Positions 35,964 through 42,991 of a stretch of DNA of 64,000 bases are shown here, one piece after another. The DNA comes from a plasmid: the NCBI RefSeq assembly GCF_056746865.1, contig NZ_JBWKMP010000003.1, one strand, 5' to 3'. The notes beneath the pieces were generated by a model. That model searched no databases and was not told the DNA's origin. It was given only the letters and a program-made list of their open reading frames with translations. The stretch's first letter is position 1. Each line of letters opens with the position of its first letter. The translations under genes were made by a program, and so were the position numbers.

Positions 35964-36869
35964 ATGAGATTAGTCGCCTTTAAAAACATATACGTCTATC
36001 GCCTTGCCCGCGAAATTAAACTGGACTCAACCACCGTTAGTGATGCCTTAAGCCAATTCACATTCACTCCATGCGCATCACAAGAAATGGCAAAAGTCGG
36101 ATGGGTGCCGGTTCTGGCTGACAACCTGATCCATGAATACCACGGTTTTCTACTTCTCCAGCAACAGCGAGAAATTAAGCTCCTGCCCTCTCATGTCATT
36201 AAGGAGGAAGTGCAGAAAAAAGTGGAAAAGCTCGAAAATGAGCAATCTCGTAAGCTGAAGAAGTCGGAAAAAAACACCCTGAAGGATGAAGTTCTCCACT
36301 CTTTGTTGCCTCGCGCATTCACTCGCAAATCATTGTCGCGAATCCTTATTGATCGCGACAACTATCTGGTCTTCGTAGAAGCTTCCAGCGCCAGAAAAGC
36401 AGAAGAAATGCTGGCGCTCTTACGTAAATCACTTGGCAGCCTGCCAGTGATTCCATTCACGCCGATAGAACCGCTCGAAATGACTATGACCGAATGGTTC
36501 AAGTCAACATTTCCTCAAGGCTTTAAAGCAGGCGAAGAAGCCATATTGAAATCTCTGTTCGATGACGGCGGCGCAGTTCGTTGCAAGAAAGTAGACCTAC
36601 AGTCAGAGGAAATAATGACTCATATTGAAGCCGGAAAAGTTGCAACAACAGTTGCAATCAACTGGCAGGACCGCGCGACCTTCAGGTTAAACGATGACAT
36701 GAGCATCAAAGCACTGACGTTTTGCGATGATCTCTATGACCAGAACGATGACATCGACCGTGAAGATGTTGCCCAGCGATTTGATGCTGACTTCATTCTG
36801 TTCACAAGCGAATTATCCGCGATGTTTAGCTCGCTGGTGGAGGCCATTGGCGGTGAAGCAGAGCATTAA
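35964..36869 (+). CDS. rdgC: recombination-associated protein RdgC
   Basis: Colinear with E. coli RdgC throughout (KEEVQKKVEKLENEQSRKLKKSEKNTLKDEVLHSLLPRAF...); ATG at 35964. Confidence 0.85.
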   Translation: MRLVAFKNIYVYRLAREIKLDSTTVSDALSQFTFTPCASQEMAKVGWVPVLADNLIHEYHGFLLLQQQREIKLLPSHVIKEEVQKKVEKLENEQSRKLKKSEKNTLKDEVLHSLLPRAFTRKSLSRILIDRDNYLVFVEASSARKAEEMLALLRKSLGSLPVIPFTPIEPLEMTMTEWFKSTFPQGFKAGEEAILKSLFDDGGAVRCKKVDLQSEEIMTHIEAGKVATTVAINWQDRATFRLNDDMSIKALTFCDDLYDQNDDIDREDVAQRFDADFILFTSELSAMFSSLVEAIGGEAEH

Positions 36870-36885
36870 TAACCGACCGCTGGCG

Positions 36886-37533
36886 GTGAGTCTTTGTGAT
36901 TATACAGGGAATATGGTTTCCCCCTGGCTGGAACACGGCATTGATGCAGTCATTGTCGATCCGCAACACCAGGAGTCCGGCAGCCAATTGATGGAGTCAG
37001 GTGCTGTACTCACACGTATCAGCGCAATTATTGACAGTGATGAGGTCTACAATTTCCTTCGGAAAAATTTGCACAGAGTTGTATTTTTAGCCGGTTTCCC
37101 TCCATGTACTGACCTGGCTGTATCTGGCGCACGCTGGTTCGCAGATAAAGCAAAAAAAGATCCGGTTTTCCAGTTCAAAGCAATGCAGGTTGTCTGGCAG
37201 TGTTACGACATTGCAAAGATGATTGGTTGCCCGTACATGATTGAAAACCCGGTCAGCCAAATATCGACATTCTGGCGTAAACCTGATCACATATTCCATC
37301 CTTATCACTTCACTGCATATTGCAAGGAAGACAATTACACCAAAAAAACATGCCTGTGGAGCGGACAAGGATTCATCATGCCAACTCCGCGAATCGACAA
37401 GTCGTTAGGTGATCCAGATAACCGAATACACAAGGCACCGCCAGGGCCTGAAAGAGCGAATTTTCGTAGCGCGACACCTTACGGTTTTGCAAGAGCTGTA
37501 TTTGAAGCAAATAAGGAGGGAATCCGTGGCTGA
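36886..37533 (+). CDS. DNA cytosine-5 methyltransferase-like protein (start uncertain)
   Basis: PC-type motif GFPPC and ENP(V) motif; GTG at 36886 chosen as the first start after the rdgC stop; overlaps the dam start by 8 nt. Confidence 0.45.
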   Translation: MSLCDYTGNMVSPWLEHGIDAVIVDPQHQESGSQLMESGAVLTRISAIIDSDEVYNFLRKNLHRVVFLAGFPPCTDLAVSGARWFADKAKKDPVFQFKAMQVVWQCYDIAKMIGCPYMIENPVSQISTFWRKPDHIFHPYHFTAYCKEDNYTKKTCLWSGQGFIMPTPRIDKSLGDPDNRIHKAPPGPERANFRSATPYGFARAVFEANKEGIRG

Positions 37534-38285
37534 TATTGGTGCTAAATTTATTTCTTATAGCGACAATCATCGTCCTGCGGCGGAAGCCACTATCAGCCAT
37601 ATGCGACGTATTCGCTCGGAGGACGAATTTGATCGCCCAGTCTTTAAGTGGGTCGGCGGCAAATTTTCTGCACTGCCCATTATCTTCGAACACCTGCCCC
37701 ACGGAAAACGGTTGATAGAACCTTTCGTTGGAGGTGGCGCTGTTTTCACTAATGCCGGATTTAAAAGCAACCTGCTGAACGATATCAATAATGACCTGAT
37801 TAACTTCTATCAGACATTGCAGCGTGAAGGGCATTCTCTTATCACACTGGCATATCGTTTTTTTCAGGATTACAACTCTGCTGATGCATTTTTGAATGTT
37901 CGCAATGCATTCAACAATGGTGCTTATGATTCCCTTCACCATGCAGCGGCGTTCCTGTATCTCAATCGTCATTGTTTTAATGGCGTCACTCGCTATAACC
38001 GTAAAGGAGAGTTCAACGTCGGATATGGAAAGCAGAAATCACCCCACTTCCCTCTCGCGGAAATGGAGGCGTTCCTGGCTGACGATATTTCAAAGTATTC
38101 GGAATTTGTGTCCGGCGATTTTGCTGGTGTAATTGAGGCTGCCGGGAATGATGATGTGATTTTCTGCGATCCCCCCTATGAACCATTGCCTGACACTACC
38201 GGATTTACAAATTACTCAGGGCATAGCTTTAGGTTTGAAGATCAACAACGGCTGGTGTCACTGCTGGTGGATGCTGGATTTGCCC

Positions 38286-39191
38286 CTATATTTCCAGACA
38301 CCTGTTATCACTTAACCCATTACTGGCCCGCTGCCGTAGATATTCCCGTGGCGAGCGATAACCCAGTGCACTATGCGGATGCCATTCGTTATAATGCTCG
38401 AACGCCTCTGCAAGGTTCTTTGCTGCCGTTAACCCGTCTGGTTTAGGCATGATACTGATGTAGTCACGCTTTATCGTTTTCACGAAGCTCTCTGCTATGC
38501 CGTTACTCTCCGGACTCCGCACCGCCGTGTTCTTCGGTTCAAGCCCCAACATCCGGGCAAACTGCCGTGTTTCATTAGCCCGGTAGCATGAACCATTATC
38601 CGTCAGCCACTCTACTGGAGACGCCGGAAGCTCGTTGCCGAAGCGGCGTTCCACCGCTCCCAGCATTACGTCCTGTACTGTTTCACTGTCGAAGCCGCCC
38701 GTAGTGACTGCCCAGTGCAGTGCCTCACGGTCACAGCAGTCCAGCGCGAACGTGACTCGCAGTTTTTCTCCGTTATCACAGCGGAACTCGAACCCGTCAG
38801 AGCACCATCGTTGATTGCTTTCTTTCACGGCCACTTTGCCAGTATGTGCCCGTTTCGATGGCGGTACAGCGGTTTTTCGCTCAAGCAACAGCGCATTCTG
38901 GCGCATGATCCGGTAAACACGTTTGGCATTGATCGCAGGCATACCATCAAGTTCGGCCTGTCTGCGAAGCAGCGCCCATACCCGACGATAACCATACGTG
39001 GGCAGCTCTCCGATAACATGGTGTATACGGAGAAGCACATCCGTATCATCTGAGTGACGGCTGCGGCGACCATCTTTCCAGTCATCGGTTCGTCTGAGAA
39101 TGACGTGCAACTGCGCACGCGACACCCGGAGACAACGGCTGACTAAGCTTACTCCCCATCCCCGGGCAATAAGGGCGCGTGCGCTATCCAC
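38286..39191 (-). CDS. insD: IS2 transposase InsD (orfB)
   Basis: 301 aa, very close to IS2 InsD as recalled ([38 protein letters not shown]..). Confidence 0.9.
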
Positions 39192-39514
39192 TTTTTTGCA
39201 CGCCCGTATTCAACGGCTTCTTTAAGGAGTTCATTTTCCATCGTTTTTTTGCCGAGCAGGCGCTGGAGTTCTTTAATCTGCTTCATGGCAGCAGCAAGTT
39301 CAGAGGCAGGAACGACCTGCTCTCCTGCGGCCACAGCAGTAAGACTTCCCTCCTGGTATTGCTTGCGCCAGAGAAATAACTGGCTGGCTGCCACACCGTG
39401 TTGCCGGGCAACAAGGGAGACCGTCATTCCCGGTTCAAAACTCTGCTGAACAATAGCGATCTTTTCCTGTGTAGTACGCCGTCTGCGTTTCTCCGGTCCT
39501 AAGACATCAATCAT
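39149..39514 (-). CDS. insC: IS2 InsC (orfA)
   Basis: [26 protein letters not shown]..; start at the internal ATG of the track ORF. Confidence 0.85.
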
Positions 39515-39780
39515 CTGCTCTCCAATGACTAGTCTAAAAACTAGTATTAAGACTATCACTTATTTAAGTGATATTGGTTGTCTGGAGATTCAGGGGGCCA
39601 GTCTAGATGCCCACAGACGCGGAGCGAAAATTGTGATAACAAACAGTGGTGCGCCTAACATTCGCGAACTTTACGTTGGCAATGGCTTCAAGGTGTATCC
39701 TATGCCATCCCGTCGCTCTGTATCCTGTAAAGCATCAACGCGAATGATAGCTAACGACATTATAGCCACACTTAATTAAG

Positions 39781-39808
39781 AAAAGCCCCATATGGGGCTT
39801 TTATAACA
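39781..39808 (+). terminator. intrinsic terminator after the dam 3' fragment
   Basis: AAAAGCCCCA-tat-GGGGCTTTT. Confidence 0.5.
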
Positions 39809-39836
39809 TCAAACAAGCACCGTTACGGTACACTAA

Positions 39837-39903
39837 CAACACCATTCTGGTACTAAAAAGGAATCAAAGTAGCCTCAAAATAACACATGGACCCAAAACG
39901 GTG
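39837..39903. repeat. repeat block flanking the ParA/ParG-like operon (left copy)
   Basis: CAACACCATTCTGGTACTAAAAAG and AGCCTCAAA..CAAAACGGTG recur at 40993-41055. Confidence 0.45.
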
Positions 39904-39914
39904 TCATTCCGGCG

Positions 39915-40202
39915 TCATTTTGTATCCTCAGACTCTGCAAGCATGAGGATAGCATGGCGGATCATATTCAATTTGCTGCGATTATGCTTTTTGCTTAACG
40001 CATCAAGTACCTGGTACTCGTATTCATTGAAGCCAACACGAATGGATTTAAAATCACGTGGGGCGTCCTTATCGAGCACTTTGTTGTCTTCTGGTTGCTC
40101 ACCCGGCACCAAATCAGCTTTGCTGGCAAAAGCCTCAATTCGGCGTTCAAGATCGAGGTCTTTTACTTCGGGGGCTTTTACCGATTTACGAGGCTTAATC
40201 AC
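39915..40202 (-). CDS. ParG-like small partition protein
   Basis: 95 aa, directly downstream of and overlapping the ParA-like ATPase gene. Confidence 0.45.
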   Translation of the reverse strand: MIKPRKSVKAPEVKDLDLERRIEAFASKADLVPGEQPEDNKVLDKDAPRDFKSIRVGFNEYEYQVLDALSKKHNRSKLNMIRHAILMLAESEDTK

Positions 40203-40836
40203 TTAATAACTCCTTAACCAACATCTGGATTTCACCTTTAGCTTTCCCGTTGTCCATCTCAACAACGCCCTTCCCTTCAGCCATACAATCGCGGTAAACC
40301 TTGCGATCGCGAATGATGGTTTTCAGCAACTTCAGTTGCGGATATTCAGCCAGGTACTCTTTGGCCTCATTGGCTTCATTCACAACCGGATTGGATGGGG
40401 CCATTGTTAAAACTGCGCACGCCTTAATGCTAGGATTAGGCATCAGATCCAAAGCCTCTTCAAAGACTTCAACAAAATGCGCCAGCGTGTCTAAATCTGG
40501 CTGAGATGGCCTGAATGGAACAAGCAAAACATCCGCCGCAGTAATACCGGTGCGCATCTCTTTGCTATCACGACCAGCGGTATCAACAACCACAAATTCA
40601 TAACGCTTGTCCAGATCAAGAAGTGTTTCACGAATATTCCCAAACTTCTGGACGCAATGAATTACTGGAGAAACCTCTGCCGCATTACGGTCCGATGCCC
40701 AACGGGCAGATGTTCCTTGCTTATCTGCATCAAGTAGAACTACGTCCTTATTTGCGCGGGCAAGCTCCGCACAAATGTTTACGCTGGTGGTTGATTTGCC
40801 ACAGCCACCTTTTTGGCTGGCTACCAATATAATCAT
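40195..40836 (-). CDS. ParA/ParF-type partition ATPase
   Basis: Deviant Walker A SQKGGCGKSTT; 213 aa, small-ParA size. Confidence 0.7.
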   Translation of the reverse strand: MIILVASQKGGCGKSTTSVNICAELARANKDVVLLDADKQGTSARWASDRNAAEVSPVIHCVQKFGNIRETLLDLDKRYEFVVVDTAGRDSKEMRTGITAADVLLVPFRPSQPDLDTLAHFVEVFEEALDLMPNPSIKACAVLTMAPSNPVVNEANEAKEYLAEYPQLKLLKTIIRDRKVYRDCMAEGKGVVEMDNGKAKGEIQMLVKELLSD

Positions 40837-40992
40837 ATCCGTCCCTCGGTGTTATTTTGGTATCAAAATGGCTCCAAACAGAAGCCTTATTGATGCGGTT
40901 TTGGCTCTATAGTGGAGTCACTATGCTTTGCAAAAGTATAACACTAAACACTCGAAATTTGCCCTCTGTTGCATCCTGTTTAACACGAAGTC

Positions 40993-41055
40993 AGCCTCAA
41001 AGTGGAACCAGACACAAAACAGCACCACAACAACACCGTTTTGGTACTAAAAGAG
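40993..41055. repeat. repeat block flanking the ParA/ParG-like operon (right copy)
   Basis: AGCCTCAAAGTGGAACCAGACACAAAACAGCACC and CAACACCGTTTTGGTACTAAAAG; related to 39837-39903. Confidence 0.45.
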
Positions 41056-41121
41056 CACCAAATTAGAACCATAACAGTATAAAAAAGGCTGCAAATTGCA
41101 GCCTTTGAAGATGTAGATTTG

Positions 41122-41487
41122 TTAATCAGGGAGTGAGTTTGCCAAATTCTGTGCAGAGCGGCTTTTCGAAACGCCAGGTTTTTTAACATCCGCTGAGGCT
41201 GAGGGGTTTCCTTCAGGGTTTTCCCGAACTTCAGGCGAAATTTCAAGAAATGAAACCAGCATTTTTCTGATCACTTCAGGGCTATTATCACCGGATAAAA
41301 GCGATGCCAACATGGGAGGTAATCTGCTATCAACCTCGCCAAGAGCGATACCTGCAAGCATCGCTGTGCGCGCCATATCATTGCGATCTCTTAATGGATG
41401 GCCCTCAAGTTTTGCATCAGCATATTGCTCACTGGCGTTAAGACCAGGACGAAGATAAAACAATACTTTTCGACGTTCCTGAGACAT
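41122..41487 (-). CDS. parR: ParR-like centromere-binding protein
   Basis: RRKVLFYLRP...RNDMARTAMLAGIAL parallels R1 ParR; immediately downstream of parM. Confidence 0.6.
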   Translation of the reverse strand: MSQERRKVLFYLRPGLNASEQYADAKLEGHPLRDRNDMARTAMLAGIALGEVDSRLPPMLASLLSGDNSPEVIRKMLVSFLEISPEVRENPEGNPSASADVKKPGVSKSRSAQNLANSLPD

Positions 41488-41497
41488 GGCAACCTCA

Positions 41498-42454
41498 TCA
41501 ACCGATAGATTTTAGACCATAGACAAGAGCAAGTTGTGGATCATCAGCAACGAAAAACCTATCGTCACGAATGTTTACCTGCTCACGGATAGCATCAGCA
41601 ACAAGCGGCGCGCCGCCACCAATGACCATAACATGCGTGTATCCTTTGAAATCACTGATCACATCCAGTACGCGTGTACGGAGTCGTTCTATGCTTGACG
41701 AAATGGCTTTCTTAACATCATCAATAGCAGACGGATCGTTAATATTGTCGGTCAAATAATCCTCATCATCACGATTAATGATTAATTGATCGACATTATA
41801 ATTAGAGGTTTCGGTATTCGCTTTTGCAAGTGCCTGTCTGACCTCTTTAGTTACCAGCGAAACGCCGAGATTAGAATCGCCAAATACGCGAGAAACGGCG
41901 GTCATTTGCCCGGCGACCATCGACACATCCAGAGTAGTCCCACCAAGATCAACAATAAGCACAGAATGCGCTGGCACAAGGCTGTCGCACAGACCGATCC
42001 CTGCGGGTATTGACTCCGGGCGCACAGTCACTTTTTTGATAGTAAAAACCTGACCTTTGTTAAGGGTGACTGGTCGCATCAGGCTGGCCTTTTTCCGCTC
42101 AATATTTTTCATGTTGTATTGTGCGTCGTCGTCATAAAACTCTGCCAGTGGCAACGTGACAACTATTTCCACTTCTTGAGGCTCAATGCCACTTGTAAGC
42201 AGGGCATGATGAACAGCAAGCACATTAAGCGGGCTGTATTGCCATTCAACGTTATTCGTCGGCAGCACATCCGGCGAGATCAAGTCATATGAATATTTTT
42301 CGTCATCAATGATGTAGTTAAACGGCTTTCCTGCGCCAAATGTGGCGGACCATCCACGTTTAAAACTGTTCGGACAGATATGGGTTCGAGTTTCCCCGTC
42401 TTGTTCCCACAGCATTTTGATATTGGTAGAACCATCGTCGATAAAAATGCGCAT
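41498..42454 (-). CDS. parM: ParM (StbA) actin-like partition ATPase
   Basis: MRIFIDDGSTNIK..HICPNSFKR..AVHHALLTSG..IVDLGGTTLD..YTHVMVIGGGA is colinear with R1 ParM; start at the second ATG. Confidence 0.85.
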   Translation of the reverse strand: MRIFIDDGSTNIKMLWEQDGETRTHICPNSFKRGWSATFGAGKPFNYIIDDEKYSYDLISPDVLPTNNVEWQYSPLNVLAVHHALLTSGIEPQEVEIVVTLPLAEFYDDDAQYNMKNIERKKASLMRPVTLNKGQVFTIKKVTVRPESIPAGIGLCDSLVPAHSVLIVDLGGTTLDVSMVAGQMTAVSRVFGDSNLGVSLVTKEVRQALAKANTETSNYNVDQLIINRDDEDYLTDNINDPSAIDDVKKAISSSIERLRTRVLDVISDFKGYTHVMVIGGGAPLVADAIREQVNIRDDRFFVADDPQLALVYGLKSIG

Positions 42455-42555
42455 CATATTGCTCCACTTCTGAGACACATTTGAGAAAGAATTGAATTTT
42501 ATATGAGAAAACAAAATAAGACCAGAAGTTAGATAGCGTAAAAAGCATCAAACAA

Positions 42556-42644
42556 GAGACGTAAGAGAGACGCAAAAGAGACTTAGATGATACATGATGT
42601 ACCCACGATACCCGTTTGAGACAAATCAGAGACAAATGTGAGAA
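42556..42644. repeat. parC-like centromere iterons
   Basis: GAGAC / GAGAA cores at 42556, 42567, 42578 and 42618, 42629, 42640 with 11-bp phasing; two triplets flank a ~35-bp core upstream of parM. Confidence 0.5.
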
Positions 42645-42706
42645 GTAAGAAATCTGAAGAGTGAAAATCACAAAGTGGAGAAGATTTAAGAAAAAGGAGG
42701 TGTTAG

Positions 42707-42991
42707 ATGAGTGCAATAGCGACCAGTGACACAGTTTGTTCTGGTCATGGAGGATTCCCTCCGCGACCTGTAGCAGAAACAGTTTCCTGGTTTACCGTAA
42801 ATGGAAAGCCAGTGGTTGTAGATGGGGGAGCGTTCCCCAGCCATACAGACGGAAATAGCGCGCACCCCGGATCAGCCGTATCGACGCGCTCATGGTTTGC
42901 AATAGGCGGGAAAGGAGTTGTTTGTGTGGGAGATCCCCTTTCTTGTGGCTCAGTCATCGCCAATGGTGAGGCAATTTTTCAGGTGTCATAA
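42707..42991 (+). CDS. PAAR-domain spike-tip protein
   Basis: 94 aa; PAAR-like pattern (CSGHGGFPP...VNGKPVVVDG...GDPLSCGS); strong AAAAAGGAGG Shine-Dalgarno. Confidence 0.55.
   Translation: MSAIATSDTVCSGHGGFPPRPVAETVSWFTVNGKPVVVDGGAFPSHTDGNSAHPGSAVSTRSWFAIGGKGVVCVGDPLSCGSVIANGEAIFQVS

Follow-up and report, generated by a model that had tools for sequence, protein, structure and literature searches.

We analyzed the partition (par) region of a 64,000-nucleotide plasmid stretch (contig NZ_JBWKMP010000003.1 of assembly GCF_056746865.1; the whole stretch is hereafter called the window), whose source element is a D6-like phage-plasmid related to P1. The 3.3-kb par region is 85% identical to Escherichia phage D6, in which its counterpart comprises orf58 to orf61, annotated as StbA, StbB, "possible ParA partitioning function" and hypothetical protein. 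Four par open reading frames (ORFs), all on the minus strand and at the coordinates already assigned to them in an earlier note made from the sequence alone, form two pairs in the same orientation, parM with parR and parA with a gene for a 95-amino acid (aa) protein (orf95). The pairs are 285 bp apart, with a terminator inside the gap. The genes and the sites predicted around them, in the order in which they would be transcribed, are as follows.

42467-42645, minus strand: parC-like region, candidate type II centromere and regulatory region
41498-42454, minus strand: parM (stbA), actin-like segregation ATPase of 318 aa, with an alternative ATG at 42457
41122-41487, minus strand: parR (stbB), type II centromere-binding adaptor of 121 aa
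41084-41106, minus strand: intrinsic terminator at the end of the parMR operon, with a 10-bp stem (AAAGGCTGCAA/TTGCAGCCTTT) followed by a T run
41006-41071, minus strand: distal upstream type Ib iteron array of six 11-bp units, candidate centromere
40906-40933, minus strand: candidate sigma-70 promoter of parA-orf95 (TTGCAA, 16 nt, TATAGA), of weak consensus and inferred from sequence
40855-40878, minus strand: proximal iteron pair, candidate operator, imperfect palindrome TTTGGAGCCATTTTGATACCAAAA
40195-40836, minus strand: parA, small Walker-type (type Ib) partition ATPase of 213 aa, without N-terminal DNA-binding extension
39915-40202, minus strand: orf95, predicted type Ib centromere-binding protein of 95 aa
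39803-39888, minus strand: downstream type Ib iteron array, candidate second centromere, with its clearest units at 39803-39855 and weaker phased units up to 39888

We consider it probable that this region consists of two autonomous partition cassettes in tandem, which in the D6 lineage of P1-like phage-plasmids jointly take the place of a P1-type ParABS system. This interpretation is built on homology, fold, operon structure, repeat arrays, purifying selection and conservation of the tandem, the functions being deduced from those of the families. It agrees with the proposal of the earlier note that two different partition systems lie side by side and co-oriented, namely a type II ParMR pair and a type Ib ParA accompanied by a small ribbon-helix-helix (RHH) protein. 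Domain and profile searches with the four proteins removed neither pair from the partition class; the 95-aa protein has no Pfam hit and a predicted RHH fold.

The 318-aa ParM matches the Pfam StbA_N domain (3.9e-69), the ParM C-terminal domain (1.2e-55) and phrog_691, a partition protein family (1.2e-75). It aligns end to end with ParM of plasmid R1 (E = 1.7e-110), with conservation of the phosphate and adenosine motifs involved in nucleotide binding (DDGSTNIK, DLGGTTLD and IGGGA). The parR gene starts 10 nt past the parM stop, and its 121-aa product matches Pfam Plasmid_stab_B (4.6e-14) and phrog_8671, annotated as partition protein (8.6e-58), while residues 3 to 78 match the N-terminal domain of pB171 ParR (PDB 2jd3, E = 3.9e-7). 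Upstream of parM, approximately nine iterons with a TCTC core are spaced by 11 bp and grouped in three clusters (42615-42645, 42553-42585 and 42467-42511), TCTC starting at offsets 64/75/86, 126/137/148 and 199/221/232. The iteron core reads (G/T)TCTC(T/A); GTCTC occurs 6 times in this parC-like region against 0.1 expected, the region is the densest GTCTC window within the 64 kb, and 11 is its top autocorrelation lag (P = 0.002 against shuffles). The parC region of phage D6 has the same architecture, made of TTCTCA iterons, and the terminator at 41084-41106 is conserved in D6 and in plasmid NZ_CP069886 (L005, hereafter CP069886). The ParMRC system of R1 shares with the window the full-length ParM alignment, a ParR encoded downstream and 11-bp-spaced iterons upstream of parM, whereas the iteron sequence and the grouping in three clusters are specific to this lineage. 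On this homology and layout, we assign the genes and iterons of 41122-42645 to a type II (ParMRC) partition cassette. A homologue of P1 upfC (42707-42991) is divergent from parM, and the parC array lies in their common intergenic region.

The ParA protein is of the small kind (approximately 200 to 230 aa), has a deviant Walker A motif of the form KGGxxK[ST] (SQKGGCGKST, residues 7-16) and lacks an N-terminal DNA-binding domain. The NCBIfam model ParA_partition (NF041546) covers it over the whole profile (positions 1-203 of 203) at 158 bits, with a cut-off at 180 bits. Matches were also found to Pfam CbiA and VirC1 and to phrog_164 (ParA-like), and both TP228 ParF (4dzz) and the ParA of 5u1g align with it over the full length (E = 3e-18). 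The closest ParA found outside the D6 group is that of an IncI-gamma/K1 plasmid (RCS49_p; 45% identity), and identity with the pB171-type ParA of CP057027 is 43%. A faint PADLOC match to ParA is confined to the P-loop (residues 5-38, E = 1.8e-4), and membership in a defense system was rejected on that ground.

The partner gene orf95 overlaps the parA stop by 8 nt, has an AAGGAG Shine-Dalgarno sequence and is translationally coupled to parA. Its product has no match in Pfam (E<=10) or NCBIfam, its PHROG is annotated as "unknown function", and sequence-only searches of the PDB returned nothing significant. Since a word-indexed homologue search yielded close relatives only, an exhaustive hidden Markov model (HMM) search was used instead and recovered 125 small relatives (representatives at 50% clustering); tblastn detected the family on 210 PLSDB plasmids. 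An alignment of 83 members reveals a conserved basic N-terminus M-[IV]-K-x-R (M-I-K-P-R-K in orf95), a helix IExFAxxAD (helix 16-29 in orf95) followed by a variable linker, and a C-terminal motif FKxIRVPFNEYEYxxLxxxAxKxGRSKLNxIRxAI. An AlphaFold model based on these 83 sequences has a predicted local distance difference test score (pLDDT) of 82.7 overall and of 88-98 over the C-terminal half, and supersedes an earlier AF2 model built from 9 sequences (pLDDT 61, weak Foldseek matches). The model predicts a C-terminal RHH domain at approximately residues 51-92, for which Foldseek ranks CopA, CopG, Arc and ParG at the top with probabilities of up to 0.98. The fold statistics are modest, the domain having only about 45 residues, yet the results are mutually consistent, and several family members match the Pfam NikA-like and RHH_1 families. 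The small downstream partner of parA is thus predicted to have an RHH DNA-binding fold.

The description of this protein in the earlier note as ParG-like stands for its architecture, that of a small protein with an RHH fold, and falls for its sequence: Pfam ParG matches neither the 95-aa protein (E<=10) nor any of the 83 aligned relatives, and likeness to ParG is found at the fold level only (1p94, Foldseek E of 0.7-1.1). The TP228 ParFGH system resembles the window in having a ParF that aligns with ParA over its full length and a small partner whose basic N-terminus is unstructured and whose RHH domain is C-terminal, but ParG shares no sequence similarity with the 95-aa protein, which has an additional conserved helix at 16-29. 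In all three of the distant homologues inspected, the gene directly follows that of a ~210-aa ParA beside a plasmid replication gene, and a conjugative plasmid of Serratia carries the ParA and 95-aa-family pair alone. On many gammaproteobacterial plasmids, small ParA genes are accompanied by a 95-aa "hypothetical protein" that very likely serves them as RHH centromere-binding protein, which would give a role to a family that has no profile model. The proteins of this family are 65 to 100 aa long and have no Pfam or NCBIfam model, and the 210 PLSDB plasmids that encode them come from Acinetobacter, Moraxella, Aeromonas, Serratia and Arsenophonus; the members sampled are annotated as hypothetical (DUF1548 for one set), and their gene often overlaps that of an AAA-family ATPase.

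Both flanks of the type Ib operon carry 11-bp units of the type TGGTGYTnnTT. The distal upstream array (41006-41071) is composed of TGGTTCTAATT, TGGTGCTCTTT, TAGTACCAAAA, CGGTGTTGTTG, TGGTGCTGTTT and TGTGTCTGGTT, and the approximately five clearest units of the downstream array (39803-39855) are TAGTACCAGAA, TGGTGTTGTTA, GTGTACCGTAA, CGGTGCTTGTT and TGATGTTAT. A 38-nt block upstream of parA (41029-41066) recurs downstream of orf95 (39835-39872) with 82% identity, and the two arrays are the two densest YGGTRYY windows of the 64 kb. In every intergenic region around both operons, 11 is the best autocorrelation lag (P<=0.018 against shuffles; P = 0.014 for the downstream array at 39803-39888). 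The same lag ranks first in the type Ib flanks of four lineages, those of the window, of D6 and of two divergent relatives (L006 and L009), and the downstream arrays are clearer in D6, L006 and L009 than in the window. The proximal pair (40855-40878, repeat family D1/D2) follows the candidate promoter, immediately precedes the parA ribosome-binding site and is conserved in D6 and CP069886, as is a block at the candidate promoter (TGACTCCAYTATAGAGCC). These observations suggest that the arrays on both sides of the operon are candidate centromere repeats, an organization described for the type Ib operons of pB171, pSM19035 and pESBL (PMC7602700).

The closest known arrangement is the double par locus of pB171, in which par1 (parMR, type II) and par2 (parAB, type Ib) are, as in the window, adjacent on one replicon (PMC6519299). 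The pB171-type locus used in our comparisons is that of CP057027, and its ParR agrees with PDB 2jd3 over the stretch that was aligned. Gene sizes are alike (214 aa for ParA and 91 aa for ParB in CP057027, 213 and 95 aa in the window), ParA, ParM and the N-terminal domain of ParR are 43%, 42% and 33% identical, respectively, and the type Ib operon of pB171 is also flanked by repeat arrays upstream and downstream (PMC7602700). The differences lie in layout, in regulation and in the centromere-binding family: the operons of pB171 are divergent and use one common regulatory region (PMC6519299; layout on CP057027), whereas in the window they form a tandem, a terminator parts them and each has its own arrays, and the 95-aa protein has no meaningful BLASTP match to the 91-aa pB171-type ParB (E = 2.1 over 7 residues). 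Moreover, pB171 is an IncF virulence plasmid while the host of the window locus is a phage-plasmid. A second instructive case is the locus of the IncI-gamma/K1 plasmid, where a 208-aa ParA is followed by a 100-aa hypothetical protein in the layout described for pESBL. The type Ib system of pESBL has been characterized experimentally, its small partner was annotated as hypothetical, and its operon is flanked on either side by parS arrays (PMC7602700). The partner proteins of the window and of this pESBL-like locus are nonetheless unrelated in sequence, and the pESBL repeats are octamers (PMC7602700), in contrast with the 11-bp-spaced TGGTGYT-type iterons of the window.

The ParABS system of P1 (type Ia) has the same role on a closely related phage-plasmid backbone, many structural genes being common to P1 and D6. 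In the P1 record, parS-parB-parA stand beside repA, between gene 23 and upfA, whereas the par cassettes of D6-like elements are located between upfC and dmt, away from repA. The remark in the earlier note that P1 itself uses another system, ParAB, is borne out by this record, which annotates type Ia ParAB; tblastn with P1 ParA and ParB found no match in the window, in the closest complete relative or in D6. As no other par system is annotated in D6 or NZ_LR890273 either, a third system of the P1 type was rejected.

Matches to the par region were found in 122 PLSDB plasmids of Escherichia, Salmonella and Shigella and in one more of Enterobacter; 7 of these match it over its full length at a minimum of 94% identity, with 99.9% for NZ_LR890273. 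The position of the four-gene block, flanked by the upfC/upfB homologues on one side and by the dam (dmt) methylase gene on the other, is common to D6, about 120 PLSDB plasmids and divergent relatives from metagenomes in which identity of the 95-aa protein drops to 74-78%, and the tandem is retained in every D6-like element examined. Because the block is present at this site throughout these elements, without the neighboring insertion sequence IS2 of the window, its distribution indicates that it is ancestral to the D6 group. In D6 and most relatives (L001 4069-5730; L005 2069-3730; L006 6554-8215), dmt and the 95-aa gene are separated by a full-length glnS gene (glutaminyl-tRNA synthetase). 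It is missing from the window lineage and from L009, which is why the downstream iteron array abuts the dam terminator in these elements. In one D6-like Salmonella plasmid, NZ_MK356557.1 (L020), the par region is nearly devoid of annotated genes and the 95-aa homologue is only 50% identical; the assembly may be frameshifted or of low quality.

All four genes are intact and under purifying selection. Ratios of nonsynonymous to synonymous substitution rates (dN/dS) against relatives are 0.013-0.019 for ParM, 0.03-0.06 for ParA and 0.09-0.12 for the 95-aa gene; for ParR, the proportion of nonsynonymous differences (pN) is 0.22-0.24 against a saturated synonymous proportion (pS) of 0.83. Within the type II cassette, ParM is 94% identical to that of D6 at the protein level with only 80% identity at the DNA level, and ParR is only 62.5-65% identical to those of D6 (65%) and other relatives. 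The window lineage (7 PLSDB plasmids, including one from E. marmotae) has a distinct ParR allele of 121 aa instead of 112 aa (L001 7208-7546), and its parC core is GTCTC(T/A) instead of the TTCTCA found in D6 (L001 8516-8781). ParR and parC appear to have co-diverged, which may reflect a changed partition or incompatibility specificity.

The type Ib cassette has a different profile, with a ParA and a 95-aa protein that are 96-100% identical to those of D6 and CP069886. In a sliding comparison with CP069886, identity reaches 95-100% over 39973-40872 and drops to 41-80% in the DNA to either side, iteron arrays included; for the capsid gene, identity with most relatives is no more than 60-80%. 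Such high identity of parA-orf95 between flanks of low identity looks like the result of a recent exchange by recombination, in a tract confined to the two genes, and the comparisons indicate that the two cassettes have different evolutionary histories. The earlier note had suggested module capture next to IS2, which comparative genomics does not support given that elements without IS2 carry the same block at the same site. Modularity of another kind does emerge from the comparison with CP069886, that is, exchange of the parA-orf95 coding block.

By analogy with characterized systems, partition of D6-like prophage plasmids could be envisioned as follows. ParR dimers would attach to the 11-bp iterons in front of parM, act as repressors of the operon and cap the ParM filaments, whose ATP-driven insertional polymerization would push sister plasmids apart. 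RHH dimers of the 95-aa protein would bind the TGGTGYT-type iterons on both sides of their operon to form a partition complex and would probably repress the parA promoter, and the basic N-terminal tail would stimulate the ATPase activity of nucleoid-bound ParA dimers, so that plasmids become evenly spaced over the nucleoid. The cassettes would act independently since they are separated by a terminator, differ in history and are distinguished by a recombination tract limited to parA-orf95. Each cassette would add to stability, in line with reports on other dual-par plasmids such as pINV. This last step is the weakest, because on other dual-par replicons one system is dispensable or masked.

Several observations weigh against the interpretation of two autonomous and functional cassettes. 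A consensus promoter scan returned no convincing promoter for either par operon and did not call the candidate at 40906-40933, the consensus given for the degenerate type Ib iterons is our own reading, and the D6 record offers no more than a "possible ParA partitioning function" beside a hypothetical 95-aa protein, D6-like elements being known here from their sequences. ParA itself narrowly misses NCBI's curated ParA_partition equivalog cut-off (158 versus 180 bits), which weakens its exact equivalog membership but not its superfamily or functional assignment. Furthermore, one of the two par systems of SCP1 is dispensable in the laboratory (PMC13245405), and par activity in pINV is masked by other maintenance systems (PMC6519299). 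The last two cases lend themselves to the explanation that a single cassette, most likely ParMRC, carries out segregation, and that the ParA/95-aa pair is redundant, decaying or conditional on host, temperature or growth state; indeed, the systems of pINV are unequal and temperature-dependent (PMC6519299), and SCP1 needs only one of its two systems under laboratory conditions (PMC13245405). We find this explanation unlikely given that the four genes are intact and under purifying selection, that about 120 plasmids and divergent relatives have retained the tandem, and that the parA-orf95 block seems to have spread recently by recombination between sublineages, which would hardly be expected of a decaying module.

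The four genes could also constitute one integrated system with extra regulators, the 95-aa RHH protein acting as a copy-number or transcription regulator instead of binding a centromere. A study of the D6-like plasmid pYU39_89 does list "cop, parA, stbB and parM" as a single partition system (PMC6799933), with the small gene named cop, and RHH proteins are often plain repressors, as are CopG and Arc, both among the fold matches of the 95-aa protein; the loci of pB171 even share one regulatory region (PMC6519299). This possibility is very improbable in view of the strong terminator between the operons, each of which has its own arrays with a different motif. In addition, ParMRC occurs alone on thousands of plasmids and the pair of ParA and an orf95-family protein occurs alone beside rep genes, the two halves differ in history, the small gene is translationally coupled to parA, and arrays on both sides of the operon exceed what a simple operator needs. 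Finally, ATPases of the ParA/MinD family are known to position chemotaxis clusters and carboxysomes (PMC4270457), and ParA of the window scores under the NCBIfam partition cut-off and has the faint P-loop-limited PADLOC match mentioned above. A role of the ParA/95-aa pair in positioning non-plasmid cargo, in the lytic cycle or in defense appears, however, the least credible of the explanations considered here: the PADLOC match is restricted to residues 5-38 (E = 1.8e-4), the nearest relatives are plasmid ParAs, one of which belongs to a locus laid out like the validated pESBL system, homologous pairs are found beside plasmid replication genes, DNA iterons flank the operon and no other cargo gene is linked to it.

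The presence of two independent, unrelated segregation machines instead of P1 ParABS would help explain both why D6-like phage-plasmids are stable and why they are compatible with P1; these elements occur commonly in E. coli, Salmonella and Shigella. The pairing of the two cassettes is real but ordinary, for the whole D6 group has it. The view of the earlier note that carrying two segregation systems is unusual contrasts with a 2026 survey in which approximately 19% of par-bearing PLSDB plasmids have more than one system and 971 combine RHH-type I with type II (PMC13245405); pB171 has long provided an adjacent type II and type Ib pair, and pINV carries two functional systems (PMC6519299). The surprise is accordingly limited, such pairs being known since pB171 and frequent in plasmid surveys. 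The new points are minor and consist of a 95-aa protein family without a profile model, a diverged ParR/parC allele and a recombination exchange of parA-orf95. Nevertheless, the combination of ParR/parC allele divergence and cassette exchange makes the D6 group a natural experiment on the evolution of partition specificity and incompatibility.

A bolder view, which we regard as possible but doubtful, is that the tandem allows D6-type phage-plasmids to alter their partition specificity stepwise, cassette by cassette, while remaining partitioned throughout, and that the 95-aa protein defines a broad, unmodeled family of type Ib centromere-binding proteins. It is suggested by the divergence of ParR and its iterons (65% identity; GTCTC(T/A) versus TTCTCA) while parA-orf95 was apparently swapped in by recombination. 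If this were true, the double locus would be a device to escape centromere-based incompatibility with co-resident relatives, and the two systems might also divide labor between hosts or growth states.

Two further features lie downstream of the par region.

39781-39802, no strand: perfect palindrome of 11+11 nt (AAAAGCCCCAT/ATGGGGCTTTT; inverted repeat I8, 100% complementary, no spacer)
38275-39605, minus strand: IS2 inserted in a Dam-family methylase gene, with target duplication GATGC at 38270-38274 and 39606-39610

The palindrome is probably a bidirectional terminator common to the par operon and the convergent dam gene. Adjacency of the par region to IS2, pointed out in the earlier note, is confirmed inasmuch as a 1331-bp IS2 is located 309 bp beyond the stop of the 95-aa gene (TnpB 707.8 bits and TnpA 276.4 bits, both over the cut-offs). 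The element sits inside the methylase gene, which is homologous to the C-terminal half of P1 dmt and is split into 37409-38274 and 39606-39779, the Dam profile being interrupted at position 212 of 267. Alignment with NZ_LR890273, which has the same par block and an intact dam gene, leaves a 1331-bp gap with a 5-bp overlap at the IS2 site. IS2 is a simple insertion in dam, a neighbor of the partition module and not a part of it; capture of the module mediated by IS2 was rejected on the grounds that relatives without IS2 carry the same block and that IS2 is bounded by a simple 5-bp duplication inside dam.

At the other end of the region, the upfC homologue (42707-42991) appears to be a PAAR-domain protein (NCBIfam T6SS_PAAR_dom, 6e-10, under the cut-off). 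Upstream of dam, a 268-aa ORF (36727-37533) without NCBIfam match at E<=1e-5 is the counterpart of D6 orf64, annotated as "putative DNA-cytosine methylase", and its listed start lies upstream of that of the shorter gene annotated in relatives.

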